Shown here: in pieces, positions 3,646 through 38,911 of the stretch | Layout: every line of letters begins with the position of its first letter | Position numbering within the stretch: position 1 is the stretch's first letter | Assembly (NCBI GenBank): GCA_044223005.1 | Contig: JBGAML010000022.1 | Location: 3,934 to 67,933 of the forward strand | DNA length: 64,000 nucleotides | Reading direction: 5' to 3' | Source of the DNA: Candidatus Eiseniibacteriota bacterium | GTDB taxonomy: Bacteria > Eisenbacteria > RBG-16-71-46 | Position numbers and translations under genes: made by a program | The notes under the pieces: model-generated | Database searches by the model: none | Told to the model about the DNA's origin: nothing | Seen by the model: only the letters and a program-made list of their open reading frames with translations

Positions 3646-3961
3646 GGGGACTCGAACGGGGGGGGGACGCGTCGGCGTGGGTCCCGGGCGAGGGGTTGAC
3701 CCACCGGAATCCGATGGAAACTAGCGGCTGCCCGGCCCCTCGGCCAGTCGGGACGAACCGGGGCACCCGACCTTCGTCCGCCGGAGCCGAGAATGGGTCA
3801 CACCCGGGGCTTTCGCGAGTAGTTCCCCCATCGGATGCGCGGCCGAGGGGCCTCCTCGCGGCCGACCCACTCGCGACCGGCCGGGCCCGCAGGCCCTCCC
3901 TGGTCGTCGCTGCCGGCCGGGCGCTGCGCGTGCCCACGCCGGCGTGCTCCCGGAGGACACG

Positions 3962-10903: not shown

Positions 10904-10932
10904 GGGGATCCTCCAGGGCAGGGGTACGTGTG

Positions 10933-10961
10933 TTCAACGCCGCATCCCGCTCCGCATCACA
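10933..10961 (-). promoter_or_regulatory. Putative ECF promoter TGTGAT-N16-CGTTGAA
   Basis: Minus strand TGTGAT gcggagcgggatgcgg CGTTGAA, 29 nt upstream of the FG-GAP ATG with GGAGG in between; matches the motif at 861-889. Confidence 0.7.
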
Positions 10962-14248: not shown

Positions 14249-14872
14249 GGAACCTCGGAGTCGCCGCCCGCAAGAGGCGTGGGGATCGTCCGGAGCCCGC
14301 GGAGGGTGCGGTGGTTCGCACGGCGGCGCGGAGGCGCGGCGCGGCGGGCGCTGCGGACGAGGATCGGGGCGGACGGCATGGATGAAAGCCCACGAACGGC
14401 GTGGGAGTCGGTGTCGGAACTCGGGGCCGAATGCACGCACGCGGCCTGCCGATACGCTAACAGAGGCCCCGGAGGAGAACCACCACATGCGTCGCATCAC
14501 ACGCATCCGTCGCGAGCACGCGCGCGAGCGCGCGGATCGTGCGCACCCGCGCCGCGAGCGGTCCGAACGCATGCGCGCCGCCGTGCGACACGTGCGCGCG
14601 ATGTGCACCGACGTTATCCGGCGAGGAACGACGCGACGCATTCCGGCAGGCCTCGCGACCGCGATCCACGCGTTGCGAAACGCGGACCGCGTCAGCGCAG
14701 CGTCAAGCGTGCGGCGCGCGGCTGTGGCGCGCACGTCGCGGGTGCTACGCTCTCTTCGTCGCACTTCCGTGTGCGCGCGGCACGACGCCGCGCGGACGAA
14801 CCTGTCCGCGATCGCGCCTCGCGCGGAGCGCACGTGACGTCGCGACAGGGTGGCGATAAGGGCGAGGATCAC

Positions 14873-16858
14873 GTGGGTTCGTCGTTCATCACGACGGTCA
14901 CCGAGCGTTGCCGCATGTGCTACACGTGCGTGCGCGAGTGCCCGGTCAAGGCGATCCGGATCACCGAGGGACAGGCCAAGGTGATCGGGGATCGCTGCAT
15001 CGCCTGCGGCAACTGCGTGCGCGTCTGCTCGCAGCAAGCCAAGCTCCTGCGCAGCACCGTCGACGAAGTGTGGACGCTGCTCCGTTCCGGCCAGCGCGTC
15101 GCCGCCTGTGTCGCCCCCAGCTTCCCCGCCGAGTTCGTGGACCTGGACGCCGGCGAGCTGGTCGGCATGATCCGGGCGCTGGGCTTCGAGCAGGTGGTCG
15201 AGGTCTCGTTCGGCGCCGACCTCGTCTCGCGCGAGTACGCCGCGCTCTTCCGCGACGAGCCCGAGCAGCGCTTCATCTCCACCACCTGCCCCGCGATCGT
15301 GCGCTACGTCGAGCGGCACGTGCCCGAGATGACCGGCGCGCTCGCGCCCGTGGTCTCGCCCATGGTCGCCATGGCGCGCGCGCTGCACCAGCTGCACGGG
15401 CCGGACCTGAAGCTCGTGTTCATCGGGCCGTGCATCGCCAAGAAGATGGAGGCGAGCGATCCCGAGACCGAGGGCGAGATCGACGAGGTGATCCTCTTCC
15501 CCGAGCTGCGCCAGATGTTCGCCGAGGCCGGGCTCGAGCCGGGCCAGGTCGCGCGTGGCGAGTTCGATCCGCCGCATGGCGGCCTCGGTGGTCTCTACCC
15601 CATCAGCCGCGGCATCCTGCAAGCCTCGAACCTGACCGAGGACCTGATGACCGGCGAGGTCGTCGCGACGCAGGGCCGCAGCCACATGGTCGAGGCGATC
15701 CGCGAGTTCGCTTCGGGCGACCTCGGCGCCCGTCTGCTCGAGGTGCTCTGCTGCGAGGGCTGCATTTCGGGCCCGGGCGTGGTCAGCGACCGTTCGCTGT
15801 TCCATCGCCGGCGCCGCGTGCGCGAACACGTCGGCCGCCGCATGGAGGCGCTGGACCGCGACCGCTGGCAGGAAACGATGGACCAGTTCGCCGACCTGCC
15901 GCTCCGCCGCGGCTACACGGCCTCCGACCAGCGCCTGCCCACGCCCGATCGCTCCGAGATCGAAGCGATCATGCACCGCATGGGCAAGTTCTCGCGCCGC
16001 GACGAGCTCAACTGCGGCGCCTGCGGCTACGACACGTGCGTCGAGCACGCGATCGCGATCAAGGCCAACCTCGCCGAGTGCGAGATGTGCCTGCCGAACA
16101 CGATCGACCAGCTGCGTGGAGCCCTGCGCGAGGTCGAGACGTCGCACGGCGCACTCGCCGAGGCCCAGGAAGCGCTGGTGCAGTCCGAGAAGCTGGCCAG
16201 CATGGGCCAGCTCGCGGCGGGCATCGCGCACGAGGTGAACAACCCGCTCGGCGTGGTGCTCATGTACTCGCACCTCCTGCTCGAAGAGTGCGACCGCAAG
16301 TCGCGCATGCACGAGGACCTCACGCTGATCGCCGAGCAGGCGGACCGCTGCAAGCGGATCGTCTCGGGCCTGCTCCACTTCGCGCGGCAGAACAAGCTCG
16401 CGCGCACCTCCGAGGACCTGGACGCGCTGCTCGAGCACGCGTTGCGCATCCTCCCGGTCCCCGACCGCATCGCGGTGAAGCTCGAACACGGCATGCGGGA
16501 TTCGCACGCCGAGATCGACCGCGACCAGGTGATCCAGGTCCTCACGAACCTCGTGAACAACGCCGTCGCCGCGATTCCGGGCGAGGGCACCATCACCCTG
16601 CGCACGGGCGACGCCGACGGCCGCGTCTGGTTCGCGGTCGCCGACACCGGCACCGGCATCCGTCCCGAGAACCTCGGGCGGATCTTCGACCCCTTCTTCA
16701 CCACCAAACCGATCGGCGTGGGCACCGGCCTGGGACTGGCGGTCACCTACGGGATCGTGAAGATGCACTCGGGCGACATCCGGGTGGAGTCGCAGGCGGA
16801 TCCGTCCGCCGGCCCCACCGGCACCACGTTCACCGTCACGCTCCCGCGCAGCGGGTAG
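14873..16858 (+). CDS. Sensory [FeFe]-hydrogenase (group C1-like) fused to a histidine kinase
   Basis: GTG 14873 after GAGGA; two ferredoxin motifs (CRMCYTCVRECP, CIACGNCVRVC); H-cluster motifs ISTTCPAIV, FIGPCIAKKME, EVLCCEGCISGPG; LNCGACGYDTC...CLP cluster; then AGIAHEVNNP, NLVNNA, DTGTG, FDPFFTTK, GTGLGL. Confidence 0.92.
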   Translation: MGSSFITTVTERCRMCYTCVRECPVKAIRITEGQAKVIGDRCIACGNCVRVCSQQAKLLRSTVDEVWTLLRSGQRVAACVAPSFPAEFVDLDAGELVGMIRALGFEQVVEVSFGADLVSREYAALFRDEPEQRFISTTCPAIVRYVERHVPEMTGALAPVVSPMVAMARALHQLHGPDLKLVFIGPCIAKKMEASDPETEGEIDEVILFPELRQMFAEAGLEPGQVARGEFDPPHGGLGGLYPISRGILQASNLTEDLMTGEVVATQGRSHMVEAIREFASGDLGARLLEVLCCEGCISGPGVVSDRSLFHRRRRVREHVGRRMEALDRDRWQETMDQFADLPLRRGYTASDQRLPTPDRSEIEAIMHRMGKFSRRDELNCGACGYDTCVEHAIAIKANLAECEMCLPNTIDQLRGALREVETSHGALAEAQEALVQSEKLASMGQLAAGIAHEVNNPLGVVLMYSHLLLEECDRKSRMHEDLTLIAEQADRCKRIVSGLLHFARQNKLARTSEDLDALLEHALRILPVPDRIAVKLEHGMRDSHAEIDRDQVIQVLTNLVNNAVAAIPGEGTITLRTGDADGRVWFAVADTGTGIRPENLGRIFDPFFTTKPIGVGTGLGLAVTYGIVKMHSGDIRVESQADPSAGPTGTTFTVTLPRSG

Positions 16859-16887
16859 GCGGCGGGCCCGGGCGCGAAAGAGCCCGC

Positions 16888-18039
16888 ATGGAAACGCTTC
16901 GCATCCTGGTCACCGACGACGAACCCGGCATGCGCCACGGCGTGGCGCGCATCCTCGGCGGCACCACGCTGCGCGTCCCCGACGTGGACGAGGAGTTCAC
17001 GCTCGAGGTCGAACAGTCCGAGACGGGCGAGGCCGCGCTCGAGATCGTGCGCCGGCAGCCCCCGGACATCCTGCTGCTCGACCACAAGATGCCCGGCATG
17101 AGCGGGCTCGACGTGCTCGACGCGCTGGCGGCGATGCGGCTCGACATGCTCACGATCATGATCACCGCGTACGCTTCGATCGAGACCGCGGTGCTCGCGA
17201 CCAAGCGTGGCGCCTACGACTTTCTCGCCAAGCCGTTCACGCCCGAGGAACTCAAGGCAACGCTGCGCAAGACCGCTGCACACCTGCTGCTCGCCAAGCG
17301 CGCGCGCCAGCTGGCCGAGGAACGCCGGCACGTGCGATTCGAGTTCGTGCGCGTGCTCGGGCACGAGCTCAAGTCGCCGCTCGCCGCGGTGACCAGCTAC
17401 GTGGACGTCATGCGCCAGCACGCGCTCGGCGACCAGCTCGCCGACTACGACGACGTACTGAAGCGTTGCCGCACGCGGCTCGAGGGCATGGACAAGATGA
17501 TCCACGACCTGCTGGACCTGACGCGCATCGAGTCCGGGCAGAAGACACGCAGCCTCGCCCCCGTCGATCTCGCGGAACGCGCGCAGGCCGCGCTCGACGG
17601 CGTGCGCGCCACCGCCGCGGCGCGCGGGATCGAGCTGCACTGCCGCGCCGAGGGCGCCGGCACCATGACCGCCGACACGGGCGAGCTCGAGATGATCCTC
17701 AACAACCTGGTCTCCAACGCGGTCAAGTACAACCGCGAGGGCGGACGCGTCGAGGTGGCGATCGTGCGCCGCGCCGGCCGCGTCGAGATCGCGGTCACCG
17801 ACACCGGCATCGGCATGTCCGCCGAAGCGGTCGCCCGGCTGTTCGGCGAGTTCGTGCGCATCCGCACCGCCGACACCGCGCACATCGAGGGCACCGGCCT
17901 GGGACTCTCGATCGTGCGCAAGCTGGCGCAGCTCTACGACGGCCGCGTCGCCGTCGTGAGCGAGCCCGGCCACGGCACCACCGTGACCGTGGTACTGCGC
18001 GACGCCGCCGAGAACGCCGTCGCGACCGAGCCGGCCTGA
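16888..18039 (+). CDS. Hybrid receiver-histidine kinase
   Basis: ATG 16888; REC (LVTDDE, LLDHKMP, AKPF) followed by HELKSPL, NLVSNAVKY, DTGIG, GTGLGL. Confidence 0.92.
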   Translation: METLRILVTDDEPGMRHGVARILGGTTLRVPDVDEEFTLEVEQSETGEAALEIVRRQPPDILLLDHKMPGMSGLDVLDALAAMRLDMLTIMITAYASIETAVLATKRGAYDFLAKPFTPEELKATLRKTAAHLLLAKRARQLAEERRHVRFEFVRVLGHELKSPLAAVTSYVDVMRQHALGDQLADYDDVLKRCRTRLEGMDKMIHDLLDLTRIESGQKTRSLAPVDLAERAQAALDGVRATAAARGIELHCRAEGAGTMTADTGELEMILNNLVSNAVKYNREGGRVEVAIVRRAGRVEIAVTDTGIGMSAEAVARLFGEFVRIRTADTAHIEGTGLGLSIVRKLAQLYDGRVAVVSEPGHGTTVTVVLRDAAENAVATEPA

Positions 18040-18185
18040 GGCCCCGCGCCCCGCGCGGAGAACGCGGGGCGTTCCGCGCCCGCCGTCGCGGTGGGCCTGT
18101 GGCAGGATCGCTCCGCACACCCCGCGCGTTCACCGGACCCTTCGCGCGCGGGTCCGGACACGATCCGGGGAGATCGTCGCTCGCC

Positions 18186-20030
18186 ATGGCACCGGAATCC
18201 CGAGCCGCCGTCGCGCCCGCGCGCCGCCCGCGGCTCACGCTGGTCGAGCAGGAGCTGGCGAACAGCCTGGACTGGCTGGTCTCGCTGCGCTGGCTCGTGG
18301 GCGGTGTCGTGGTACTCGCGGCGCCGCTTGCGACGAGCGCGTTCCGCATGCCGATCCCGGCCGAGGCGCTGACGCTGACCGGCGGCGGCATCCTCGCCTA
18401 CAACTTCGTGCTCTGGTCCGTGCAGCGTGCGATGCGCCGGCACGGCGTCGACGACCCGCGCTGGCACCAGGCCATCGCGCGGATCCAGATCCTGCTCGAC
18501 TGGATCGCGATGGCGGTGCTGATCTCGCTCTCGGGAGGCGCCGAGAGCCCGGCGATCGTCTTCTTCCTGATCCACATCACGATCGCGTCGCTGCTCCTGC
18601 CCCACCACCTTGGCTTCCTCTACGTGAGCCTCGCGCCACTGCTGGTCGCGGGCGTGGCGCTGCTCGAGTACTTCGAGGTGCTGCCGCACGTGGCCGTGGT
18701 CCTGCCGCCCCGCTACCACGAGCCGCTCTTCGTGGGCTTCGCGGTCGGCTTCTTCACGCTCGCCTGCTACATGATGGCCTATGCCTGCATGGCGATCGCG
18801 CGCCGGCTGCGGCGGCGCGAGACCGAGCTCGGCGGCCTCTACGAGAGCGTGCAGGAGATCACCAGCACGCTCGAGCTCGACGCCGTGCTCGACACGATCG
18901 TCGAGGCTGCGGCGCACGTGCTCGGGTGCCGTGCGGCCGCGATCCGGCTGATCGACCTCGCGCGGGCCCAGGTCGAGTTCGCCGCCACCCACGGCCTCTC
19001 CGAGCGCTACCTCGAGGACGTGCCCGAGGACTTCGCGCGCTCGCGGCTGGACCAGGAGACGCTCCGCGCCGGCGTCGTGCACGTGGACGACGTCGAGCGC
19101 GACGACCGCGTCTGGAAGCCCGAGCGCGTGCGCGACGAGGGCATCGCGTCCATGCTCAGCGTCACGATCCACGGCCGCACCGGCCCACTCGGCGTCCTGC
19201 GCGCGTACGGCGCGCCGGGACACCGGTTCACGCACGAGGACGTCACCTACCTGCAGGCCGTGGCGGCGCACGGCGCCGTGGCGATCGAGCATGCGAAGGC
19301 CTACCGGCTGCTCGCCGAACTCGACCGCGACAAGTCGCGCTTCCTGCGCACCACGACGCACGAGCTGCGTTCGCCCGTGCGCGTGACCGAGAGCCTGCTC
19401 GCCACGCTGGCCGACGGCTACGCCGGCCCGCTGCAGGGAGAACAGGGAGAGCTCGTGCGCCGCGCGCAGCGCCGGCTGGCCGCGCTGCACATGTTGATCG
19501 ACGACCTGCTGGCGCTGGCCGCGGGCAAGGCCGACATGGGCGCGCTGCAGCCGCGCCGCTGCGACGTGCGCGGCATCGTCGCCGAGGTCGTGGAGCAGTT
19601 CCGCGCCGTCGCGACCGAGAAACACCTCACGCTCGCACTGTCGTCACCGGGGGAACCGCTCGAAGTCTGGTGCGACCCGGGCGATCTCGAGCGCATCGTG
19701 GCCAACCTCGTGAGCAACGCGGTCAAGTACACGCGCGAGGGCGGCGTCACCGTGACGCTCGCGGGCGAGGACGCGCACGTGCGCCTCACGATCGCCGACA
19801 CCGGCATCGGCATCCCCACGACCGCGCAGCCGCACCTCTTCCAGGAGTTCTACCGCGCGGGCAACGCGCGCCAGGTCGAGGAGTCGGGCACGGGGCTCGG
19901 GTTGTCGATCGTGCGCGCGCTCGTCGAGCGCTACGGCGGCCGCGTCACGTTCGCGAGCGAGGAACATCGCGGCACCACGTTCTCCGTGGAGATGGTTCGC
20001 GCGAGCGGCTTTGGATCGCGGTCCGAGTGA
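18186..20030 (+). CDS. Membrane-bound GAF-domain sensor histidine kinase
   Basis: ATG 18186; about six N-terminal TM helices, GAF (LDAVLDTIV...FTHEDVTYL), HELRSP, NLVSNAVKY, GTGLGL. Confidence 0.9.
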   Translation: MAPESRAAVAPARRPRLTLVEQELANSLDWLVSLRWLVGGVVVLAAPLATSAFRMPIPAEALTLTGGGILAYNFVLWSVQRAMRRHGVDDPRWHQAIARIQILLDWIAMAVLISLSGGAESPAIVFFLIHITIASLLLPHHLGFLYVSLAPLLVAGVALLEYFEVLPHVAVVLPPRYHEPLFVGFAVGFFTLACYMMAYACMAIARRLRRRETELGGLYESVQEITSTLELDAVLDTIVEAAAHVLGCRAAAIRLIDLARAQVEFAATHGLSERYLEDVPEDFARSRLDQETLRAGVVHVDDVERDDRVWKPERVRDEGIASMLSVTIHGRTGPLGVLRAYGAPGHRFTHEDVTYLQAVAAHGAVAIEHAKAYRLLAELDRDKSRFLRTTTHELRSPVRVTESLLATLADGYAGPLQGEQGELVRRAQRRLAALHMLIDDLLALAAGKADMGALQPRRCDVRGIVAEVVEQFRAVATEKHLTLALSSPGEPLEVWCDPGDLERIVANLVSNAVKYTREGGVTVTLAGEDAHVRLTIADTGIGIPTTAQPHLFQEFYRAGNARQVEESGTGLGLSIVRALVERYGGRVTFASEEHRGTTFSVEMVRASGFGSRSE

Positions 20031-20360
20031 CGTTTTGCATGCTGGCGGCGCGGCGCGCGGATGCGACGCCCGCCCGTGGTGCCTACAATCGCATCGTGGT
20101 TTCACACTGTTGGGTTGCATCCTCACGCATCCATTCGCCGGTCGCAGCGCGGGCCGGCAGGAGCAGATCGATCGTTTCCTGAACTTCCCGTCGCGCGTCC
20201 CGCGTGACCGACCCTTCCCACCTTCCGTACCCGTTCGCCCGGCCGTGGTGCCGCACTCCACGGGCCTGCGGCCGCGAGATGAGCACGGTTCCGAGATCGG
20301 CCGTCGCGCCCCACGCGCGCGGGACGTCGTCTCCAGGCAACACTCCCAGGGAGCACGTCC

Positions 20361-20732
20361 ATGGCTCGCATTCTCGTCGTCGACGACGACCCCGATATCA
20401 CCTACGCCGTCTCGCTCTTCCTCCGCAAGGAAGGCTACGAGGTCCAGACGGCGGCCAGCCGCGCCGACGGCATGAAGGCGATCACGGCCTTCAAGCCCGA
20501 CCTCATGATCCTCGACGTCATGATGGAGCAGCCCGACGACGGCATCGCCATGGCGCAGGAACTGCGCCGCAACGGCGTCAAGCTGCCGATCGTCATGCTC
20601 ACGAGCGTCGGCAAGGTCACCGGAATGAGCTTCGACCGGGACAGCGAACTGGTCCCCGTCGACGCCTTCTTCGAGAAACCCGTCAAGCCCGAGGAGCTGC
20701 TCCGCTCGCTCGGCGAGCTGCTTCGCCGCTAG
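20361..20732 (+). CDS. Single-domain response regulator
   Basis: 123 aa; ILVVDDD, ILDVMM, MLTS, EKP; no output domain. Confidence 0.93.
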   Translation: MARILVVDDDPDITYAVSLFLRKEGYEVQTAASRADGMKAITAFKPDLMILDVMMEQPDDGIAMAQELRRNGVKLPIVMLTSVGKVTGMSFDRDSELVPVDAFFEKPVKPEELLRSLGELLRR

Positions 20733-20741
20733 GAGGCGCCC

Positions 20742-21254
20742 ATGCTCGTGAGCCAGCAGCAGCAGGTGCAGGACGAGATCCGCGCACTCGTGGCGAAGCA
20801 CGGCCGCGCGCGCGCGTCGCTGATGCCCATCCTGCAGGACGTGCAGGCCCGCCACGCCGTCGTGTCGGACTTCGCCATGCAGGTGATCGCCGACGAACTC
20901 GGCATCCACCCCGCCGAGGTCTACGGCGTGGTGTCCTTCTACGCGTTCCTCGACCACGAACCCCGGGGACGATTCCAGATCCGCCTCTGCCAGACGCTGT
21001 CGTGCGACCTCGACGGCAAGGCGCGCATCGCGCGCCAGCTCGAGAACGAGCTCGGCATCGCGTTCGGCGAGACGACTCCCGACGGCCGCTTCAGCCTCGA
21101 GTGGGCGAGCTGCCTCGGCATGTGCGACCAGGGCCCGGCCCTGCTCGTGAACGACCGCGTCTACACCCGGGTCACGCCCGACCGGGTCCACGAGATCCTC
21201 GAAGACTGCCGCAAGGTGTTCGGCGCCCACGCCGCACAGCCGGCGCACGCCTGA
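20742..21254 (+). CDS. hydC: NuoE-like [2Fe-2S] subunit of [FeFe]-hydrogenase (HydC)
   Basis: VYGVVSFY, CQTLSC, CLGMCDQGP; AGGAGG RBS. Confidence 0.88.
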   Translation: MLVSQQQQVQDEIRALVAKHGRARASLMPILQDVQARHAVVSDFAMQVIADELGIHPAEVYGVVSFYAFLDHEPRGRFQIRLCQTLSCDLDGKARIARQLENELGIAFGETTPDGRFSLEWASCLGMCDQGPALLVNDRVYTRVTPDRVHEILEDCRKVFGAHAAQPAHA

Positions 21255-21267
21255 GCGGAGGAACGAC

Positions 21268-22485
21268 ATGCATCCCACCGACAGTCGCAGGACGCCGTTG
21301 ACGTTCGACACCATCGCGCCGGGGGCGGGTCTCGCCGCGGCGCTGAAGAAGAGCCGCGCAGACCTGATCGCCGAAGTGGCCGCCTCGAACCTGCGCGGCC
21401 GCGGAGGTGCGGGCTTCCCCACCGGCACCAAGTGGAACCTCGCGGCCGCCGCACGCGTGCAGGCCGGCCAGCACAAGTACGTCGTGTGCAACGCCGACGA
21501 AGGCGAGCCCGGCACGTTCAAGGACCGCGTGCTGCTGCTGGAATACGCGGACCTCGTGTTCGAAGGCATGACGATCGCCGCCCGGGCGATCGGCGCCGTG
21601 AAAGGCATCCTCTACTTGCGCGGCGAGTACCGCTACATGCGGGCGCATCTGGACGGCGTGCTGGCACGGCGCCGCGAGGCGCACCAGCTCGGTCGCGACA
21701 TCCTCGGCACCGCGGGCTTCGAGTTCGACATCGAGATCCGCATGGGCGCCGGGGCCTACGTCTGCGGCGAGGAGACCGCGCTCATCGAGTCGCTCGAAGG
21801 CCACCGCGGTGAGCCTCGCAACCGGCCGCCGTTCCCGGTGGACACCGGCTACCTCGGGCAACCGACGGTCGTGAACAACGTCGAGACGCTCGCATCGGTC
21901 ACCGCGATCCTCGCCAAGGGTGCGGCGTGGTTCAAGGCGATCGGGTCCGAGCGCTCCGCCGGCTTCAAGCTGTTCAGCATCTCGGGCGACTGCAGCAAGC
22001 CGGGCGTCTACGAGTTCCCGCTCGGCCTCACCGTGCGCGAGCTGCTCGAAGCCGTCGGCGGCACGAACGCCAAGGCCGTGCAGGTCGGAGGCGCGTCGGG
22101 CACGTGCGTGCCGGCGTCGGAGTTCGACCGCCGCATCGCGTTCGAGGACGTCGCGACCGGCGGCTCGGTCATCGTGCTCGGGCCCGGGCGCGACATGCTT
22201 CACGTCGCGAAGAACTTCATGGAGTTCTTCGTCGAGGAGTCGTGCGGCCAGTGCACGCCGTGCCGCGTGGGCAACGCCAAGCTGCTCGAGGGGATCGAGA
22301 TGCTCGAGCGCGGCGAGTGCTCCAACGCCTACCTCAAGGAGCTGCTCGCGCTGTGCGAGACGATGCAGCTCGCGTCCAAGTGCGGCCTGGGGCAGTCGAG
22401 CCCCAACGCGTTCGTGTCGATCGTGAAGCATTTCCGGGACGAGATCCTCGGCCGGACGGCCGAGCCGGTGGGAGGTGCGCGATGA
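21268..22485 (+). CDS. hydB: NuoF-like FMN/NADH-binding subunit (short HydB)
   Basis: LRGRGGAGFPTG, NADEGEPGTFKDR, GAYVCGEETAL, GGASG, ESCGQCTPCRVG, CGLG; 405 aa with no C-terminal ferredoxin domain. Confidence 0.9.
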   Translation: MHPTDSRRTPLTFDTIAPGAGLAAALKKSRADLIAEVAASNLRGRGGAGFPTGTKWNLAAAARVQAGQHKYVVCNADEGEPGTFKDRVLLLEYADLVFEGMTIAARAIGAVKGILYLRGEYRYMRAHLDGVLARRREAHQLGRDILGTAGFEFDIEIRMGAGAYVCGEETALIESLEGHRGEPRNRPPFPVDTGYLGQPTVVNNVETLASVTAILAKGAAWFKAIGSERSAGFKLFSISGDCSKPGVYEFPLGLTVRELLEAVGGTNAKAVQVGGASGTCVPASEFDRRIAFEDVATGGSVIVLGPGRDMLHVAKNFMEFFVEESCGQCTPCRVGNAKLLEGIEMLERGECSNAYLKELLALCETMQLASKCGLGQSSPNAFVSIVKHFRDEILGRTAEPVGGAR

Positions 22486-24413
22486 GTTCCGAGATCAGGA
22501 CGGGCGCGGAAGCCCAGCGCGCTCCCAGCAGCCAGATGGTGAAGAAGGTCCCGGTCACGGGCGACGTGTCGCAGATGATCGGCGGGCAGATCACCGTCAC
22601 GATCGACGGCAACGAGGTGAAGGTGCCCATGGGCACCACGATCCTCGAGGCCGCGAAGCACGTCGGCGTGCGGATCCCGACGCTGTGCCATCACCCCGAC
22701 CTCTGCGTCGCCGGCGTCTGCCGAGTCTGCGTGGTCGAGGTCGAGGGCCAGCGCGCGCTGCAGGCCGCCTGCGCATATCCGGTGACGGGTTCGGTCAAGG
22801 TGCGCACGCACACTCGCAAGGTGCGCCAGGCGCGGCGCCACATCCTCGACCTGCTCCTCTCCACGCACTACGGCGAGTGCTACAGCTGCAAGCGGAACAA
22901 CAACTGCGAGCTCCAGTCGCTGGCCAAGGAGTACGGCGTCGACTTCTACCGGTTCGGGCACGTGACCACGTCGCAGGTCCAGAAGGACGAGTCGAGCTAC
23001 TCCGTGATCCGCGACATGGACAAGTGCATCCTCTGCCGTCGCTGCGTCCGCACGTGCATCGACGTGCAGGAGGTCGGCGTGCTCGAAGCCGTCGGCCGCG
23101 GCGACAAGACCCGCATCTCGACCTACCTCGACAAGGCGCTCGGCGACGTCGTCTGCATCAACTGCGGGCAGTGCATCAACCGCTGCCCCACCGGCGCGCT
23201 GCACGCCAACGACACGTCGGACGAGGTGTGGCAGGCGATCGACGATCCGACGAAGCACGTCGTGATCCAGACCGCCCCGAGTCCGCGCGCCGCGATCGGT
23301 GAGTGCTTCGGCTGCGAGCCCGGGACGCCGATGACGTACCAGCTCAACACCGCGCTCAAGCTCGCCGGGTTCGACAAGGTGTTCGACACCAACTTCTCGG
23401 CCGACCTCACGATCCTCGAGGAAGGGACCGAGCTGCTGCTCCGGCTGCAGAAGGCGCTGGTGAAGGGCGAGAAGACGGCCTTCCCGCAGTTCACGAGCTG
23501 TTCGCCGGGCTGGGTGAAGTTCCTCGAGCACTTCTACCCCGAGTACATCCCGAACCTGTCGTCCGCCAAGAGCCCGCAGCAGATGTTCGGCGCGGTGATC
23601 AAGACCTACTACGCGCAGCGCAACGGAATCGACCCGAAGGACATCGTCACGGTCGCCCTGATGCCGTGCTCGGCCAAGAAGTTCGAGTGCAACCGGCCCG
23701 AGATGGCGGACAGCGGCTTCAAGGACGTGGACTACGGCCTCACGACCCGCGAGCTGGCGCAGATGATCCACGAGGCCGGCATCCACCTGCCCGACATGCC
23801 GCGGAGCGATTTCGACGATCCGTTCGGCACGGCCACGGGCTCGGGCGTGATCTTCGGCGCGACGGGCGGCGTGATGGAGGCCGCGCTGCGCACGGTGATC
23901 GAGCTGGTGACCGGGCTCAAGGTCGAGAAGCTCTTCGAGCACGCGAACATCGTTCCCGTCCGCGGGTTCGACGGCGTGCGCTACGTGGAGCTGCCCGTCC
24001 CGCAGGTCGCCGAGGTGCCCGCGATGCTGAAGAGCCTGATCCCCAGCTTCGAGTTCCTGAAGGGCCAGACGCTCAAGGTCGCCGTCGCGCACGGCACCGC
24101 GAACGCGCGGCGGGTGCTCGAGGACATCCAGGCCGGCGGGAAGTTCTCCGAGTGCCACTTCATCGAGTTCATGGGCTGCCCCGGCGGCTGTCTCGGCGGT
24201 GGCGGCCAGCCCATCCCGACATCGCCCGAGATCCGCGCGGCGCGGGCGCGGGCGATCTACGCGGAGGACGCGGACTGCGTCGTGCGCAAGTCGCACGAGA
24301 ACCCGGCGGTGCTGAAGCTCTACCAGGAGTTCTTCACCGACGGTCCGTGCGGGCATCGCAGCCACGAACTCCTGCACACGCACTACACCCCGCGCGGCAA
24401 GCACATCGGCTGA
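22482..24413 (+). CDS. hydA: [FeFe]-hydrogenase catalytic subunit (group A, trimeric complex)
   Basis: ATGA overlap with the hydB stop; [2Fe-2S] motif, HxxxCxxCxxxxxC, two [4Fe-4S] motifs; H-cluster FTSCSPGW, MPCSAKKFE, EFMGCPGGCLGGGGQP; C-terminal RKSHENP...LLHTHY. Confidence 0.95.
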   Translation: MSSEIRTGAEAQRAPSSQMVKKVPVTGDVSQMIGGQITVTIDGNEVKVPMGTTILEAAKHVGVRIPTLCHHPDLCVAGVCRVCVVEVEGQRALQAACAYPVTGSVKVRTHTRKVRQARRHILDLLLSTHYGECYSCKRNNNCELQSLAKEYGVDFYRFGHVTTSQVQKDESSYSVIRDMDKCILCRRCVRTCIDVQEVGVLEAVGRGDKTRISTYLDKALGDVVCINCGQCINRCPTGALHANDTSDEVWQAIDDPTKHVVIQTAPSPRAAIGECFGCEPGTPMTYQLNTALKLAGFDKVFDTNFSADLTILEEGTELLLRLQKALVKGEKTAFPQFTSCSPGWVKFLEHFYPEYIPNLSSAKSPQQMFGAVIKTYYAQRNGIDPKDIVTVALMPCSAKKFECNRPEMADSGFKDVDYGLTTRELAQMIHEAGIHLPDMPRSDFDDPFGTATGSGVIFGATGGVMEAALRTVIELVTGLKVEKLFEHANIVPVRGFDGVRYVELPVPQVAEVPAMLKSLIPSFEFLKGQTLKVAVAHGTANARRVLEDIQAGGKFSECHFIEFMGCPGGCLGGGGQPIPTSPEIRAARARAIYAEDADCVVRKSHENPAVLKLYQEFFTDGPCGHRSHELLHTHYTPRGKHIG

Positions 24414-24430
24414 CGCGAGGCGATCCATGC

Positions 24431-24461
24431 ACGGGGCGGTCCGCGACACGGGCCGCCCCGT
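24431..24461 (+). terminator. GC-rich hairpin after hydA
   Basis: ACGGGGCGGTCC...GGGCCGCCCCGT; no U-tract. Confidence 0.45.
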
Positions 24462-24818
24462 CGCGTTGCCGCTCGCGCGAGTGCGCCCTTCGGCGTACGC
24501 ACTTCCACGGAGGCGCGCGTGCATTCCGCACAGGCACGATACGTGGGCGTGAAATCCGCCATGAAACGTTCACGCGTGCGGGACAATTCTCATCCGACCG
24601 GAGAAGCGCGCGTTGTGCGCGCAACGTGCCGCCGATACCGTCGATGTCGGAGTGGTGCGACGCCACTCGTCTGGGAGGCGCCGCGCCGTGACACCGACGG
24701 GCGCGTTGCCGCACGGCTCGAGCCCGTCATCCGGAAGCGAATCGTACGAACGGCTCGTGCCTGATCCATAGCAGTCGCCGTTCCCGTGCACGGCCCTCGC
24801 GGCCGTGGGGACCGATCG

Positions 24819-26816
24819 ATGGCCAACGTGGTGTACGGAGTGTGGGACGGGGTGGTGCACGATCATCGTGACCCCGCCTCGGAGGCGGGCCCCGAACTGG
24901 CAGGCCTGCAGGGATTCGACGAGTTCAACGCCGGCAACGGCATCCGCGCCTTCTTCGGCGATCGCGGCTTCTTCGTGTTCGATCGCCGCACCAACCTCAC
25001 CGACGCGCTCTGGCGCTACCTGGAGAAGGCGGCCGAGCAGTCGTGCGGCAAGTGCACCCCGTGCCGCGTCGGCACCGTGATCCTGCGCGACGCGCTCGGC
25101 GCGATCCGCCGCGGCGAGCGCGGCACGATGAGCCTCGCGGACATGGAAGCCATCGCCGAACAGATGACGACCACGTCGCTCTGCGGGCTCGGCCAGACCT
25201 GCGCGCGCGCCCTGCTCGCGGCGGTGCGGAACTTCCGCGACGTGCTGGAAGCCGAGGCCGAGAACGCCCCGGGGCCGATCCAGTACGGCATGACGTACAT
25301 GACGGCGCCGTGCATCGAGGCGTGTCCGTCCAAGATCAACGTCCCGCGGTACATCGACTACATCCGCGACGGCAAGCCCGCGCACTCGCTGGGCGTGATC
25401 CTGCAGAAGTACCCGATGGCCGCGACCTGCGGCCGCGTCTGCGTGCGGTTCTGCGAGATGGCCTGCCGCCGCAACCTGGTCGACGAGGCGGTCGGCATCA
25501 AGACGCTCAAGCGCTACGTGGCCGATCAGCAGAAGGGCCCCAATGCCATCGCGTTCACGCGCGACATGATCGCCGACCCGCTCGGGCCGGAGATGCGCGT
25601 CGCGGTCGTGGGCGCCGGTCCCGCGGGCATCTCGTGCGCCTACCACCTGCTGCTGCACGGCTACCACGTCGACGTGCTCGAGGCGATGGAGGTCGCGGGC
25701 GGCATGGCGGCGATCGGGATCCCGAGCTACCGCCTCCCGAAGGACGTGCTCCGCTCCGAGACCGGCATCATCACCGCGCTCGGCGGCCGCGTGCTCTACG
25801 GCCAGGCGCTCGGACGCGACTTCTCGGTCGACGACCTGTTCGCGCGCGGCTACCGAGCGATCTTCCTCGCGCTCGGGTGCCAGCAGGGTTCGCTGCTCGG
25901 CGTCGCGAACGAAGACCCCGACATGCCCGGCTACAAGGCCGGCATCGCGTTCCTGCTCGAGGTACACGACCACGTCGCCGGCCTGCAGAAGACGCCGCTC
26001 GCGGGGCGCGTGATCGTGGTGGGCGGCGGCAACGTCGCGATGGACTGCGCGCGCTCCGCCCTGCGCATGGGCGCCTCGGAGGTGCACGTCGTCTACCGCC
26101 GCACGCGCGACGACATGCCGGCCGACCACGAGGAGGTCGAAGCGGCCGAGAAGGAAGGCATCGTCTTCCACTTCCTCACCAACCCCTCGCGGATCCTCGC
26201 CGAGAACGGCCGCGTGGCCGGCGTCGAGCTGGTGGCGATGGAGCAGACCGAGCCCGACGCGCGCGGCCGGCGCAACGTGAAGCCGGTCGCGGGCAGCGAA
26301 CACGAGTTGCGCGGCGAGATCCTGATCGCCGCGATCGGGCAGCAGGTGCGCCAGGGCGCGCTGGCCGAGCCGGACGGCGTCGACTTCGATCGCTGGAACT
26401 GCCTCGCCACCGACCCGGGCTCGCTCGTCACGTCGCGGCCGGGTGTGTTCGCGGGCGGCGACTGCGCGACCGGGCCGTCCACGCTGATCCACGCGATGGC
26501 GGCCGGCCTGCACGCGGCGCGCAGCATCGACGACTGGATCCGCGAGGGACAGGTGCGGTTCTCGCCCCGCTCGCGCATGCGCAAGCTCCTCAACGAGCAC
26601 CGCATGCTCGCCGCGGACAGCGTGGAGTTCCCGGTGCGGCCGCAGTACCGCGTGCACCATCCCGAACTCGATCCGGAAGTGCGCAAGGGCATGTTCGAGG
26701 AGGTCGAGCAGACGATCGGCGTCGCCGAGGCTTACCACGAGGCCAAGCGCTGCCTTCGCTGCTACCGCGTCTACTCCGTCGTCACCGCGCAGCCCATCCC
26801 GGAAGGAGCGGCCTAG
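24819..26816 (+). CDS. GltD/NfnB-like FAD/NAD(P)H oxidoreductase with N-terminal NuoF-type [4Fe-4S] domain (hydrogenase partner subunit)
   Basis: ATG 24819; QSCGKCTPCRVG...CGLG; APCIEACP, CGRVCVRFCEMAC; GAGPAG; GGGNVAMDCAR; VYRR; FAGGD; EAKRCLRC. Confidence 0.88.
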   Translation: MANVVYGVWDGVVHDHRDPASEAGPELAGLQGFDEFNAGNGIRAFFGDRGFFVFDRRTNLTDALWRYLEKAAEQSCGKCTPCRVGTVILRDALGAIRRGERGTMSLADMEAIAEQMTTTSLCGLGQTCARALLAAVRNFRDVLEAEAENAPGPIQYGMTYMTAPCIEACPSKINVPRYIDYIRDGKPAHSLGVILQKYPMAATCGRVCVRFCEMACRRNLVDEAVGIKTLKRYVADQQKGPNAIAFTRDMIADPLGPEMRVAVVGAGPAGISCAYHLLLHGYHVDVLEAMEVAGGMAAIGIPSYRLPKDVLRSETGIITALGGRVLYGQALGRDFSVDDLFARGYRAIFLALGCQQGSLLGVANEDPDMPGYKAGIAFLLEVHDHVAGLQKTPLAGRVIVVGGGNVAMDCARSALRMGASEVHVVYRRTRDDMPADHEEVEAAEKEGIVFHFLTNPSRILAENGRVAGVELVAMEQTEPDARGRRNVKPVAGSEHELRGEILIAAIGQQVRQGALAEPDGVDFDRWNCLATDPGSLVTSRPGVFAGGDCATGPSTLIHAMAAGLHAARSIDDWIREGQVRFSPRSRMRKLLNEHRMLAADSVEFPVRPQYRVHHPELDPEVRKGMFEEVEQTIGVAEAYHEAKRCLRCYRVYSVVTAQPIPEGAA

Positions 26817-26819
26817 GCC

Positions 26820-28664
26820 ATGAGCGAACTCGTCACGATCGTCGACCCGGCCGCTCCGGTGCACGCCCTCCTCAACGGCGTGGCCGTCGAGTCGCACGCC
26901 GGCGAGACCATTCTGCAGTGCGCGCGCCGGTACGGCGTGCACATCCCCACGCTGTGCGAGATGGACGACATCGACCATGCGCCCGGCACCTGCCGCGTCT
27001 GCCTCGTCGAGGCCGACATCCCGGGCCGCGACGCCACGCTGGTCGTCACCGCGTGCAACACGCCCATGCAGGAGGGCATGGCGATCCACACGCGCACGCG
27101 CAAGGTGCGCGAGATGCAGCGGCTGCAGGTCGAGCTGCTGCTCGCGGACCACGACCAGGACTGCGCCACCTGCATCCGCCACGGCAACTGCGAGCTGCAG
27201 GACGTCGCGCAGTTCGTGGGCCTGCGCACGAACCGCTTCTTCGACGAGGCCCGCGTGGCCGCGCGCCCCGTCGACCGCTCCTCCCCCGCGCTGATCCGCG
27301 ACATGAGCAAGTGCATCCGCTGCCAGCGCTGCATCGCGATCTGCCGCGACGGTCAGGGCGTGGACGCGCTCGTCGTCGCGGGCACGGGCCAGGACACCTC
27401 GGTGGGCCTGCGCTACGGGCTCTCGCAGGCCGACTCGACCTGCGTCACCTGCGGCCAGTGCGTGCTCGTCTGCCCGACCGGCGCGCTCGGCGAGCGCGAC
27501 GAGGTCGAGCGCGTGATCGAGTACCTCAACGATCCGTCCGTGGTCACGGTGTTCCAGTTCGCCCCGGCGCTGCGGGTGGGCTTCGGCGAAGAGTTCGGCA
27601 TGACGCCGGGCACCAACGTCGAGGGCCACATCATCGCCGCGCTGCGGCGGCTGGGCGCCGACATCGTGCTCGACACGAACTTCGCCGCCGACGTCGTGAT
27701 CATGGAGGAAGGAACCGAGCTCCTGCGGCGGCTGAACGAAGGGCACCGGCCCACGTTCACGTCGTGCTGCCCGGCGTGGATCAACTTCGCCGAACGCCAC
27801 TATCCGCAGATCCTGCCGATGCTGTCGTCGACCAAGTCGCCGCAGCAGACGCTCGGGATCATCGCCAAGACCTACCTGCCCGAGAAGATGGGCATCGACC
27901 CCGCGAACGTGCGGGTGATCTCGCTGATGCCCTGCACGGCCAAGAAGGACGAGGCCGTCCGGCCCGCGCTCCAGCACGGCAAGGTGCCCGAGGTCGACGT
28001 CGTGCTCACGACGCGCGAGTTCGTGCGGCTGCTGCGGCGCGAGGGCATCGACCTGCGGGCGCTGGAGCCGTCGACGTTCGACAACCCGTACATGAGCGAC
28101 TACTCGGGCGCCGGCGTCATCTTCGGCACCACGGGCGGCGTCATGGAGGCGGCAGTGCGCACCATGTACCACGCCGTCAACGGACGCGAGCTCGAGCACG
28201 TGGAGCTCGAGCAGCTGCGCGGCTTCGACGGCGTGCGCACGGCGACCGTGGACCTGGGCGGCGCGATCGGCGCCGTGAAGGTGGCCATGTGCCACGGCCT
28301 CAAGCCCACGCGCCAGATCGTGGAGGCCGTGCTCGCGGGCGAGGCCGATCTCGACTTCATCGAGATCATGGCCTGTCCCGGCGGCTGCGTGGACGGCGGC
28401 GGCACGCTGCGGTCCAAGAAGGCGTACCTGCCTCACGCCATGAAGCGCCGCGAGACGCTGTTCGGCATCGACCGGGCGCGGACCGTGCGCCAATCGCACA
28501 ACAACCCGCAGGTACAGAAGCTCTACCGCGACTACCTCGAGCGGCCGTACTCCGAGAAGGCGCACTACCTGCTGCACACGTACTACGCGGACCGCCACGT
28601 CGAGATGAACCGCACCGTGAACCAGATCTGGAACGAGATCACGATGAGCACGATGGTGTACTGA
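26820..28664 (+). CDS. hydA: [FeFe]-hydrogenase catalytic subunit (group A2-like, GltD-linked)
   Basis: Full accessory Fe-S set; H-cluster FTSCCPAW, MPCTAKKDE, EIMACPGGCVDGGG; 3 bp after the GltD-like gene. Confidence 0.93.
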   Translation: MSELVTIVDPAAPVHALLNGVAVESHAGETILQCARRYGVHIPTLCEMDDIDHAPGTCRVCLVEADIPGRDATLVVTACNTPMQEGMAIHTRTRKVREMQRLQVELLLADHDQDCATCIRHGNCELQDVAQFVGLRTNRFFDEARVAARPVDRSSPALIRDMSKCIRCQRCIAICRDGQGVDALVVAGTGQDTSVGLRYGLSQADSTCVTCGQCVLVCPTGALGERDEVERVIEYLNDPSVVTVFQFAPALRVGFGEEFGMTPGTNVEGHIIAALRRLGADIVLDTNFAADVVIMEEGTELLRRLNEGHRPTFTSCCPAWINFAERHYPQILPMLSSTKSPQQTLGIIAKTYLPEKMGIDPANVRVISLMPCTAKKDEAVRPALQHGKVPEVDVVLTTREFVRLLRREGIDLRALEPSTFDNPYMSDYSGAGVIFGTTGGVMEAAVRTMYHAVNGRELEHVELEQLRGFDGVRTATVDLGGAIGAVKVAMCHGLKPTRQIVEAVLAGEADLDFIEIMACPGGCVDGGGTLRSKKAYLPHAMKRRETLFGIDRARTVRQSHNNPQVQKLYRDYLERPYSEKAHYLLHTYYADRHVEMNRTVNQIWNEITMSTMVY

Positions 28665-28753
28665 CCGCGGTCTCCCCCGACGCCGGCATCCCCCGCGGCG
28701 TCCGCGGCGCCCGTTCGCTCCGGCGAGCGGGCGTTCGCGTCTCCGGCCGCGTC

Positions 28754-29062
28754 TCAGTCCGCGAGCCGCAGCCGCACGAGCGTCGCGCCCCAGTGCCCGC
28801 GTCCGGCCGGTGCGTCGGCGTACGACTCCACCTCCGGGTGCGCCGCGAGCAGCGAACGCACGCGCTCGCGCTGGACGCCGATCCCCTTGCCGTGGATCAG
28901 CCGTACCTCGCGGAAGCCCGCCGCGCGCGCCGCGTCGAGGTAGTCGCGCACGACGTCCGGCACGTCGCGCGGCCGGAACGAGTGCAGGTCGAGCGCGTCC
29001 TCGATCGGGAGCTCGTGCGGGGCGCCGCCGTCGTCCCTTTCGTCCTCGGGGTCGCCGCTCAC
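28754..29062 (-). CDS. Smr/MutS2-domain small protein
   Basis: LDLHSF...RLIHGKGIG...GHWGATLV. Confidence 0.9.
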   Translation of the reverse strand: MSGDPEDERDDGGAPHELPIEDALDLHSFRPRDVPDVVRDYLDAARAAGFREVRLIHGKGIGVQRERVRSLLAAHPEVESYADAPAGRGHWGATLVRLRLAD

Positions 29063-29066
29063 GGCC

Positions 29067-38143: not shown

Positions 38144-38911
38144 CTACATCAGTTCGCGCAGGCGCGCGTAGCCGCTGCGGCTCACGGGGAGTTCGCGGCC
38201 GTCGCGCAGGATCGCGACGCGGCTGTCCTTGGCGTACAGCTCGAGGCGCGCGATGCGGTCGACGGGCACCACATATGAACGGTGCACGCGCACGAAGCGC
38301 GACGGGTCGAGACCGGACGCGACCTCGGCCAGCGTCGCGTGCTTGAGCCATGTCTTCCCGCCCGCGTGCACCGCGACGTAGTCGTCCTGGGCCTCGAGCA
38401 GATCGAGCGCATCGAGCGTCACCACGTGCACGTTCGCGCCGTCGCGCACCAGCAGCCGCTCGGCGAAGCGGCCTTCCGGCCGGGCCGCGGCGGCGAGCGC
38501 CGCAGGCGACGGGACCGCGGCCGCCGGCGTCCCCGCGGCGCGCCGGCGCTCGCGGACGCGGGTGAGCGCGTCGGCGAGCCTCTCGCGCCCGAAGGGCTTG
38601 AGCAGGTAGTCGGCCGCGTTCACCTCGAATGCCTTGAGGGCGTACTCGTCGTACGCCGTGCAGAAGACGACATGCGGACGCGGCTCGAGCAGCTCGAGCA
38701 CTTCGAAGCCGTCGAGCTTGGGCATCTGGATGTCGAGGAACACGAGATCGGGCGCGTGCTCGGCGGCGGCCTTCACGGCCTCGAAGCCGTTCGCGCACTC
38801 GGCGACGATCGTCACGTCCGGATGCGACCCGAGGTACTCGCGCAGCAGCGCCCGCGCCGGGGCTTCGTCGTCCACGAGCATCGCCCGCAGGACCGTCGTC
38901 TCGCTCGTCAC
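38144..38911 (-). CDS. LytTR-family response regulator
   Basis: GTGA overlap with the kinase stop; VDDEAPAR, FLDIQMP, DYLLKPF, FVRVHRSY, PVSRS. Confidence 0.93.
   Translation of the reverse strand: MTSETTVLRAMLVDDEAPARALLREYLGSHPDVTIVAECANGFEAVKAAAEHAPDLVFLDIQMPKLDGFEVLELLEPRPHVVFCTAYDEYALKAFEVNAADYLLKPFGRERLADALTRVRERRRAAGTPAAAVPSPAALAAAARPEGRFAERLLVRDGANVHVVTLDALDLLEAQDDYVAVHAGGKTWLKHATLAEVASGLDPSRFVRVHRSYVVPVDRIARLELYAKDSRVAILRDGRELPVSRSGYARLRELM

Follow-up and report, generated by a model that had tools for sequence, protein, structure and literature searches.

Genes for [FeFe]-hydrogenase (hydA) have been described in several hosts without the genes for the canonical maturases HydE, HydF and HydG. 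Most archaeal carriers, Giardia and Entamoeba belong here, and an alternative pathway has been proposed for them (Greening et al. 2024, PMC11216029); in the cultured heliobacteria Heliomicrobium and Heliophilum, hydA without hydEFG has been read as yielding no functional enzyme (PMC9147875). The locus described here comprises nine plus-strand genes that fill positions 14873-28664 of a 64,000-nucleotide (nt) stretch (the window) from a Candidatus Eiseniibacteriota bacterium (assembly GCA_044223005.1, contig JBGAML010000022.1), and it holds three kinds of [FeFe]-hydrogenase: a sensory type fused to a kinase (HydS-HK), a trimer linked to NuoE- and NuoF-like subunits (HydCBA, with the catalytic subunit HydA1), and a dimer of a second HydA (HydA2) with a GltD-like protein. 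As in the archaea, the two protists and the heliobacteria (PMC11216029, PMC9147875), the hydA ligands are intact and no maturase is detectable. Unlike those hosts, the genus is bacterial and combines three H-domain genes with regulators; its locus has 88-89% identity to a maturase-bearing lineage, and there are data on selection within the genus. Among the papers listed by full-text literature searches, which covered main texts, no report of Eisenbacteria [FeFe]-hydrogenases or of a maturase-less bacterial multi-hydrogenase locus was found.

Given all of these findings, we consider it moderately probable that the locus is a mobile three-unit module of H2 metabolism with an H2-sensing relay, in a host that genuinely lacks the canonical maturases. 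The identity of the module is well supported; its H2 sensing, phosphotransfer partners, cofactor specificity and catalytic direction are what we infer from it. The gene cluster itself is one more copy of a widespread mobile module whose sensor-kinase, NADH-type and GltD-linked parts are all of described kinds. Here, the module sits in a facultative aerobe of activated sludge, in a genus without detectable canonical maturases, and its genes are kept intact by selection. The interest lies in the apparent lack of a maturation system and in the conserved operon that begins with a receiver gene.

The source genome is 99.33% complete in 35 contigs. When it was searched with the NCBIfam maturase models, the best HydF match reached 76.5 bits, in the GTPase part only, versus a cut-off of 325.55, and the best HydE match 31.1 bits versus 254.6; for HydG (cut-off 312.15), there was no match at E <= 0.001. 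Furthermore, a tblastn search of the same genome with HydE, HydF and HydG from the closest Acidobacteriota genome gave nothing above 51 bits. As a positive control, HydG scored 480-538 bits in four of five genomes reached via related loci; the fifth, from Eisenbacteria, gave none. Related loci were obtained by searching one genome per species for HydA1 relatives, and the resulting 80 loci were compared by tblastn with 12 proteins of the window. Of these 80, 11 have maturase genes in their fetched flanks. The genes downstream in the relatives L010 and L012 encode HD, TPR, KARI, zinc peptidase, beta-eliminating lyase, CDP-alcohol phosphatidyltransferase, rhomboid, GH57 and multihaem cytochrome proteins; by Pfam, neither a radical-SAM nor a GTPase candidate is found among the seven genes of L012 after hydA1 or the three of L010 after hydA2.

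It could be argued that the host is an ordinary one with canonical maturation, whose hydE, hydF and hydG lie on a plasmid or on an island of deviant coverage or composition that was dropped by binning each time. All 16 genomes of the genus are indeed metagenome bins, of 30 to 930 contigs, and maturases can sit far from hydA in relatives (in genome G045, hydG is ~47 kb from hydA1). In addition, the selection pattern and intact motifs described below are as for a normally matured enzyme. However, HydE, HydF and HydG are over the cut-off in none of the 16 genomes, nine of which carry the H-domain, and six of these nine, the source genome included, are at least 91% complete (the other three are at 78-79%). 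HydG is present in eight of 151 sampled genomes of the phylum, and among the sampled genomes with a strong group-A HydA, HydG was binned, from the same kind of data, in all seven outside the genus, which belong to other families, but in none of the six within it. Likewise, hydF-hydE lie only 3-5 kb downstream of hydA1 in the two nearest Acidobacteriota genomes, whereas none of the six fetched flanks of Eisenbacteria-clade loci holds a maturase gene, and the downstream genes of L010 and L012 are unrelated ones. A real absence of the canonical maturases is thus favoured over a binning artefact, which we regard as unlikely. Because the genus is without detectable HydE, HydF and HydG, an H-cluster in any of the three proteins is putative in this host, and for HydS-HK its binding, with a response to H2, is doubtful.

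A [NiFe]-hydrogenase was considered as a helper. Its large subunit (~740 bits) is present in five of the nine locus carriers, at G000:C16:143445-144983 of the source genome (G000) and in G006, G008, G009 and G014, and in none of the seven non-carriers. Since it is missing from four carriers, the [NiFe] system cannot be a required helper on present evidence. Its restriction to genomes with the [FeFe] locus means that the H2 genes cluster in one part of the genus, in genomes that, as kin, are not independent. In other families of the phylum, eight genomes (G029, G052, G054, G095, G107, G113, G124 and G152) have weak matches to Fe_hyd_lg_C, at 80-95 bits in frames of ~430-580 amino acids (aa), and none of them has HydG over the cut-off; these matches may belong to a different H-domain-like protein family.

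Within the genus, the ratio of nonsynonymous to synonymous substitution rates (dN/dS) is 0.16-0.33 for the genes of HydA1, HydA2, HydB, HydC and the GltD-like protein and 0.23-0.66 for the kinases. These ratios are inflated because a third-position G+C of ~95% caps synonymous change, and by this measure the genes of the locus are under purifying selection. The H-cluster motifs are identical in all seven HydA1 and all four HydA2 sequences of the Eisenbacteria clade. These results bear on the idea that the locus is recently acquired, unused cargo heading for decay in a host unable to mature a hydrogenase. The spread of the locus is patchy, as such cargo would be: the H-domain (PF02906) is found in nine of the 16 genomes of the genus, the source genome and eight of 15 others, and in none of nine genomes from the nine other genera of the family. 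In L013, moreover, hydA2 is split into two overlapping frames (900-2749), with the Fe-S domains in 900-1784 and the H-domain and small-subunit domain in 1661-2749, as a result either of decay or a frameshift or of a long-read assembly error; and the pN/pS of HydA1 is slightly above that of Acidobacteriota. Against this, the window and L010 each have nine intact genes and L012 has eight, its gltD-like gene being truncated where the fetched sequence ends. Synonymous divergence between species is ~0.3-0.8 with dN/dS well below 1, and rearrangement of the locus has cost it no gene, the gltD-hydA2 pair lying upstream in L012 and L013 and downstream in the window and L010. Unused cargo is consequently the reading to which we give very little credence.

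A protein may also keep the hydrogenase fold while losing the cofactor, as the eukaryotic Nar1/NARF proteins do. By analogy, HydS-HK could be a redox sensor, and the "hydrogenases" could be NAD(P)H-linked electron-transfer proteins with another acceptor, or regulators, that work without the di-iron subcluster. Purifying selection that persists while the maturases are absent would fit such a function, as would the heliobacterial hydA homologue without hydEFG that was read as non-functional (PMC9147875). However, the three H-cluster motifs are identical to those of the maturase-bearing Acidobacteriota, including residues that contact only the di-iron site, and there is neither visible drift toward a new function nor an evident site for an alternative substrate. 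A role without the di-iron site therefore seems quite improbable. In the more general form, in which the maturases are really absent and the host has either an alternative route to the active site or a use for the proteins in which no such site is required, the combined reading falls a little short of an even chance. The narrower combination, in which the genus makes working H-clusters by a non-canonical route without HydE, HydF and HydG and, in addition, the lone receiver docks on HydBC (see below), is tentative and, as a joint statement, somewhat unlikely. A route of this kind has been put forward for archaea and some protists. Should the maturases truly be absent, the question of HydEFG-independent maturation extends from archaea and protists to bacteria, and sister genomes with and without the locus could be compared and mined for alternative maturation genes.

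Turning to the enzymes themselves, the closest described relatives of the trimer are Hyd1ABC of S. wolfei and HydAB of S. aciditrophicus (Losey et al. 2017, 2020; PMC7311640) together with the "sub-type II" BfuABC, whose short HydB lacks clusters B3-B5 and which has been predicted to be non-bifurcating; the hosts given for the latter are Hydrogenedentota, Acidobacteriota, Actinomycetota and Planctomycetota (Zheng and Huang 2024, PMC11406978). As in these systems, HydA is accompanied here by a short NuoF-like HydB and a NuoE-like HydC. HydC (20742-21254, plus strand) is the [2Fe-2S] subunit (2Fe-2S_thioredx, 1.3e-47 by Pfam; NCBIfam NuoE 143.8 bits, cut-off 141). HydB (21268-22485, plus strand; 405 aa) has only a flavin mononucleotide (FMN) domain, an SLBB domain and one [4Fe-4S] domain (Complex1_51K-SLBB-NADH_4Fe-4S), so that the extra Fe-S domains, an N-terminal [2Fe-2S] and a C-terminal 2x[4Fe-4S], are missing, as they are in the non-bifurcating systems. 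HydA1 (22482-24413, plus strand; 643 aa) has 2Fe-2S and 3x[4Fe-4S] accessory domains and a fused small-subunit domain (Fer2_4/NADH-G_4Fe-4S_3/Fer4/Fe_hyd_lg_C, the last at 4.2e-84, and Fe_hyd_SSU). Its motifs are FTSCSPGW, MPCSAKKFE and EFMGCPGGC, and its best solved relative, the HydA1 chain PDB 7q4v_A (607.6 bits), has the same Ser in the first motif. The Hydrogenedentota loci L060 and L079 fall in the same HydA1 family, at 70-75% identity.

Residue criteria that divide bifurcating from non-bifurcating beta subunits are given by Losey et al. (2020, PMC7311640). At the NADH site, HydB reads CNADEGEPGTFKDR where the bifurcating HydB of A. woodii reads CNADEGDPGAFMDR. Where T. maritima HydB has residues 232 and 234, it has Thr and Lys, in line with the Thr/Ser and Lys/Ser/Ala of non-bifurcating enzymes, whereas bifurcating enzymes have Ala or Glu and Met; near FMN (T. 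maritima HydB 367), it has Tyr (GAGAYVCGEE) where bifurcating enzymes have Phe (GAGAFVCGEE); and in the SLBB region, GGPSG of the bifurcating enzymes is missing and GGASG stands in its place. Among 49 relatives, K85, Y164 and A276 are invariant and T83 is nearly so. The best solved relative of HydB is 5xf9_A, the diaphorase chain of an NAD-reducing hydrogenase, and HydA1 passes the NCBIfam model NF040763, "NADH-dependent [FeFe] hydrogenase, group A6", with 801.9 versus a cut-off of 765. HydB thus fits the Losey 2020 criteria, by which the trimer would be non-bifurcating and NADH-dependent; the NADH linkage that had been assigned to it in the first-pass annotation, made from the sequence alone, is supported.

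In the window, the operon begins with the gene of a lone receiver (20361-20732, plus strand; 123 aa, a REC domain without an output domain), and, unlike the described non-bifurcating systems, it sits in a host without detectable HydEFG. The receiver-first arrangement recurs in relatives: a REC gene lies <=150 nt upstream of hydC in 52 of the 69 assessable loci, from many phyla, so that REC-hydC-hydB-hydA forms a conserved core. (The remaining 11 of the 80 loci had no qualifying HydC match or were cut too close to HydC.) The text of one study of such trimers, that of Zheng and Huang (2024, PMC11406978), makes no mention of a receiver gene with them. In the receiver, D52, T81/S82 and K106 are conserved in 49 sequences, and the phospho-acceptor pocket is intact.

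For the second enzyme, the nearest described category is group A2 of HydDB, called "glutamate synthase-linked (putative)" and listed with an "undetermined role", for which the rule is that the next gene after hydA encodes a protein with a GltA/GltD-type domain and not NuoF (PMC5037454). HydA2 (26820-28664, plus strand; 614 aa; Fe_hyd_lg_C at 1.1e-85 and a small-subunit domain) is preceded by the gene of a GltD/NfnB-like flavoprotein (24819-26816, plus strand, from an ATG at 24819, with an alternative GTG at 24786; NADH_4Fe-4S, Fer4_20 and Pyr_redox_2 by Pfam and NCBIfam). This protein has a NuoF-type C-terminal [4Fe-4S] domain, a 2x[4Fe-4S] domain (DPD_II) and flavin adenine dinucleotide (FAD)- and NAD(P)-binding domains, and it has no FMN domain. 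As in HydDB group A2 (PMC5037454) and the StnC and NfnB modules (PMC10482914), HydA2 is paired with a flavoprotein that bears 2x[4Fe-4S], FAD and a nicotinamide site. Unlike in group A2, the flavoprotein gene lies upstream of hydA2, the gene downstream being a convergent Smr gene, and the flavoprotein has the additional NuoF-type cluster domain. The gltD-like gene always adjoins hydA2, even where the pair is upstream of hydS (L012, L013). The motifs of HydA2 are canonical (FTSCCPAW, MPCTAKKDE, EIMACPGGC), and it matches PDB 7q4v_A and 8a6t_A at ~500 bits.

The best PDB matches of the GltD-like protein are 9bov_A, 9n5u_A ("NfnA"), 8oh5_C and NfnB 4ylf_B, and the GltD-like module of StnC has been shown to oxidise NADPH (PMC10482914). 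The earlier proposal that the second enzyme is NADPH-linked is plausible, since the solved proteins nearest to it are GltD-like modules that bind NADPH, those of StnC, NfnABC and NfnB. A split in which one enzyme would use NADH and the other NADPH is a reasonable inference, because the HydB residues and the HydA1 model point to NADH while the GltD-like protein is nearest to NADPH modules. The further idea of the first-pass annotation, that the two enzymes could shuttle reducing equivalents between the two cofactor pools by way of H2, is speculative.

Putative sensory [FeFe]-hydrogenases form subclasses marked by an N-terminal di-cluster, loss of the proton-relay Cys, replacement of Met353 and Met497, and a C-terminal four-cysteine motif; a PAS domain defines one of them, M2f in group C (Land et al. 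2020, PMC8163306). HydS-HK (14873-16858, plus strand; alternative GTG start at 14834) has, in order, Fer4, Fe_hyd_lg_C (1.1e-44), the FeS domain PF04060, HisKA and HATPase_c. The Fer4 families lie at residues 9-56, as an N-terminal 2x[4Fe-4S], and Fe_hyd_lg_C at 75-301. The motifs are STTCPAI, GPCIAKKME and EVLCCEGC, with the H-domain cysteines retained; the four cluster-binding cysteines are in fact kept in all three H-domains of the locus. Matched to CpI numbering by motif rather than by structure, Thr replaces the proton-relay Cys299, Gly replaces Met353 and Leu replaces Met497. The C-terminal Cx2Cx4Cx16C is present as CGACGYDTC, 16 residues and a further C (PF04060 at 379-408). In these features, and in a gene that adjoins group A hydrogenases, HydS-HK resembles HydS of T. 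maritima (group C, M2f) and of T. mathranii (group D, M2e) (PMC8163306), and it mixes the two types, with Gly at 353 as in the former and Leu at 497 as in the latter. Unlike the PAS-bearing M2f proteins, it has no PAS domain by Pfam at E <= 0.001, and HisKA-HATPase follows directly after the C-terminal Fe-S motif, from residue 444. Apart from the PAS domain, it matches the features of the sensory subclasses of Land et al. Sensors of this kind with a histidine kinase are already known, in HydDB, which has the sensory classes C1-C3 (PMC5037454), and in Hydrogenedentota, as "BfuT" (PMC11406978). Class labels are used here on the basis of domains, neighbours and the HydDB rules (PMC5037454).

Two further kinases lie between the sensor and the trimer. 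A hybrid kinase (16888-18039, plus strand) has an N-terminal receiver followed by HisKA-HATPase, and it accompanies HydS-HK, at 48-52% identity, in L071, L072, L074, L075 and L080. A membrane histidine kinase (18186-20030, plus strand, from an ATG; 6TM_PilS-GAF-HisKA-HATPase) is found directly upstream of REC in six Eisenbacteria-clade loci (the window, L010, L012, L013, L014 and L066) and in four Acidobacteriota loci (L017, L068, L083 and L085). In this genus, the two kinase modules are combined. The regulatory system of certain [NiFe]-hydrogenases, HoxBC-HoxJ-HoxA, whose regulator binds DNA, is similar in that a hydrogenase-like sensor sets a two-component relay, of histidine kinase and response regulator, that governs catalytic hydrogenases. 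Unlike in that system, the sensor is of an unrelated family and the only regulator in the window locus is the lone receiver. HydDB also has a "histidine kinase-linked" [NiFe] class, 2b (PMC5037454).

These arrangements have led to a model with three units. The signalling unit would consist of the cytoplasmic HydS-HK, the receiver-gated hybrid kinase and the membrane GAF kinase; in the second, the lone phospho-receiver would be co-transcribed with a non-bifurcating, NADH-linked trimer of the S. wolfei Hyd1ABC or "sub-type II" kind; and the third would provide a two-subunit hydrogenase whose flavoprotein resembles the NADPH-binding NfnB and StnC modules. In this model, the activity of the kinase would depend on the state, redox or H2, of the H-domain in HydS, phosphate would pass from HydS-HK to the lone receiver, either directly or via the hybrid kinase, and the GAF kinase would add a second input. 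The phosphorylated receiver would then act on a protein partner. Indeed, the receiver has no DNA-binding domain and, consequently, must act by binding a protein. When the receiver was modelled together with HydC and HydB, the predicted complex had a median interface score (ipSAE) of 0.57, and the best of three controls gave 0.00; runs share at least 92% of contacts, with a partner pLDDT of at least 83. Of 80 solved complexes, 58 attain the ipSAE mark applied, as do two of 110 mismatched pairs; at <=0.60 stand only seven of the 80 solved complexes, and both mismatches. The prediction is weakly suggestive of docking of the receiver on HydBC. If so, the lone receiver could be a phosphorylation-controlled subunit that tunes the NADH-oxidising activity of HydBC directly, rather than transcription. 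The conserved wiring, in which up to three kinases would feed a lone receiver encoded with hydCBA, makes the long-assumed sensory role of HydS testable by phosphotransfer.

Several observations weigh against the proposed reading, beyond the binned state of the genomes and the split hydA2 of L013. A HydS that lacked its H-cluster could respond to redox state, though not to H2. In addition, pN/pS of HydA1 is 0.20-0.46 in the Eisenbacteria clade (median 0.34, 15 pairs) and 0.12-0.39 in the maturase-bearing Acidobacteriota (median 0.20, 10 pairs); the ranges overlap, but since the median is higher in Eisenbacteria, mild relaxation is possible. Cofactor specificity is assigned by homology, and some GltD-like proteins use NADH. 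HydA2 falls just under the NCBIfam group A6 cut-off (717.1 versus 765). On the side of regulation, no DNA-binding regulator is found within the locus by Pfam, the only stand-alone regulator being the 123-aa receiver, and transcriptional control is consequently unsupported; the nearest DNA-binding regulator, a REC-LytTR protein (38144-38911, minus strand), is ~9.5 kb away and has its own kinase. The first-pass annotation had the system sense H2 and control the hydrogenases; for control of their expression, the locus offers no DNA-binding output. A scan of 14200-29200 for sigma-70-type promoters gave no site versus 0.5 expected, a sigma-54 consensus pattern (<=1 mismatch) had no match in the window versus 3.1 expected, and no RNA dataset is among those listed as containing 20361-28664.

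The comparison of the 80 loci also shows how far the module as a whole has spread. HydS-HK homologues whose match includes the kinase are found in 18 of them (Ignavibacteriota, Rifleibacteriota, Thermoleophilia and Eisenbacteria), and in 14 of these 18, the sensor gene is immediately preceded by the subunit gene or genes of a second hydrogenase (L012, L030-L032, L035-L037, L039, L057, L071, L072, L074, L075 and L080), with a GltD-like partner in L072 and L074. Having three classes in one locus, which had been put forward as a special feature of this cluster, is accordingly a recurring design and no rarity: synteny across the 80 loci reveals a widespread mobile module, with the receiver-first core and the sensor-kinase at the frequencies given. 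HydA1 is 81-89% identical to that of Eisenbacteria metagenome-assembled genomes (MAGs; L010-L013, L066) and 88-89% identical to that of Vicinamibacterales/Acidobacteriota MAGs (L017, L083, L085). A quick maximum-likelihood tree built from 77 HydA1 sequences places the Eisenbacteria and the three Acidobacteriota sequences in one clade with 99% support (SH-aLRT, the Shimodaira-Hasegawa-like approximate likelihood ratio test). In this midpoint-rooted tree, from which no direction of transfer is inferred, the three Acidobacteriota sequences nest among Eisenbacteria, with two other Acidobacteriota as sisters. The HydA1 sequences thus indicate that the locus is horizontally exchanged between Ca. Eisenbacteria and Acidobacteriota. 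In L012 (12341-14505) and L013 (12260-14420), the loci with gltD-hydA2 upstream of hydS, conserved genes for a 238-aa HD-domain protein and for a TPR protein follow hydA1 on the same strand; they may be further signalling parts of the locus.

Genes were called by analysis of third-position G+C (GC3) in the window, the G+C content of which is ~72%, and domains were checked with Pfam and NCBIfam models. The nine co-oriented genes, their coordinates and the three kinds of hydrogenase had been proposed beforehand, and all are borne out by the frames and domains. The gene order is the same in L010, another MAG, and all 30 bins of 13500-29500 are covered at >=95% identity by contigs of four further studies, so the order is not an assembly artefact; single contig pieces bridge 19187-21528 and 22238-25945. 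Short "joints" in mapped contigs, with sides of 20-26 letters, were read as noise from other organisms.

A GC-rich hairpin directly 3' of the hydA1 stop (24429-24464, plus strand; -39.6 kcal/mol, z -3.51, one of 200 shuffles as stable) is probably the end of the REC-hydCBA transcription unit, and another between the convergent hydA2 and Smr genes (28703-28739, plus strand; 96-nt stretch at -57 kcal/mol, z -3.55, one of 200 shuffles as stable) is a probable terminator. Because hairpins follow both stops and a spacer of ~350 nt separates hydA1 from the gltD-like gene, REC-hydCBA and gltD-hydA2 are probably separate transcription units, which fits the upstream position of the pair in L012 and L013. 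A hairpin after the stop of the hybrid kinase gene (18036-18080) is no better than shuffles (z -1.3, 19 of 200), and a terminator scan of 14200-29200 gave one terminator-like site, on the wrong strand, versus 3.9 expected. The GAF kinase and receiver genes are separated by a 330-nt non-coding spacer (20031-20360) in the window and by ~370 nt in L010 but by only ~24 nt in L012 and L013; since this spacing varies, the transcription units probably differ between species.

The 8.3-kb stretch 20361-28664 occurs in wastewater, sludge and bioreactor metagenomes. The source genome has two matches to haem-copper oxidase (COX1), one [NiFe] large subunit and five matches to 2-oxoacid:ferredoxin oxidoreductase. 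The first-pass annotation had pointed to a facultative host from SURF1 and urate-pathway genes in the window. SURF1 (41695-42414, minus strand) and the urate-pathway genes of HIUase (60773-61114, minus strand) and OHCU decarboxylase (61111-61641, minus strand) are present, and the COX1 matches, SURF1 and the [NiFe] subunit support such a host. SURF1 is part of a minus-strand group (38144-42414) with two LiaF-like proteins, a small open reading frame, a further LiaF-like protein, a His_kinase (PF06580) protein and the REC-LytTR protein, an envelope-stress-type two-component cluster beside a cytochrome oxidase assembly gene. The urate-pathway genes are accompanied, within 58409-63991, by those of an M20 peptidase, an amidohydrolase, a cupin and a large DUF6986 protein (59276-60715, 592 bits), a family that may belong to purine breakdown. 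Elsewhere in the window, two minus-strand genes encode a TPR-repeat protein with a CHAT domain (958-3645) and an FG-GAP repeat protein of 1348 aa whose C-terminal domain is FlgD_ig (6887-10933). FlgD_ig occurs again in a neighbouring 295-aa protein (3944-4831), and this domain may be a sorting or surface-display tag of the phylum.

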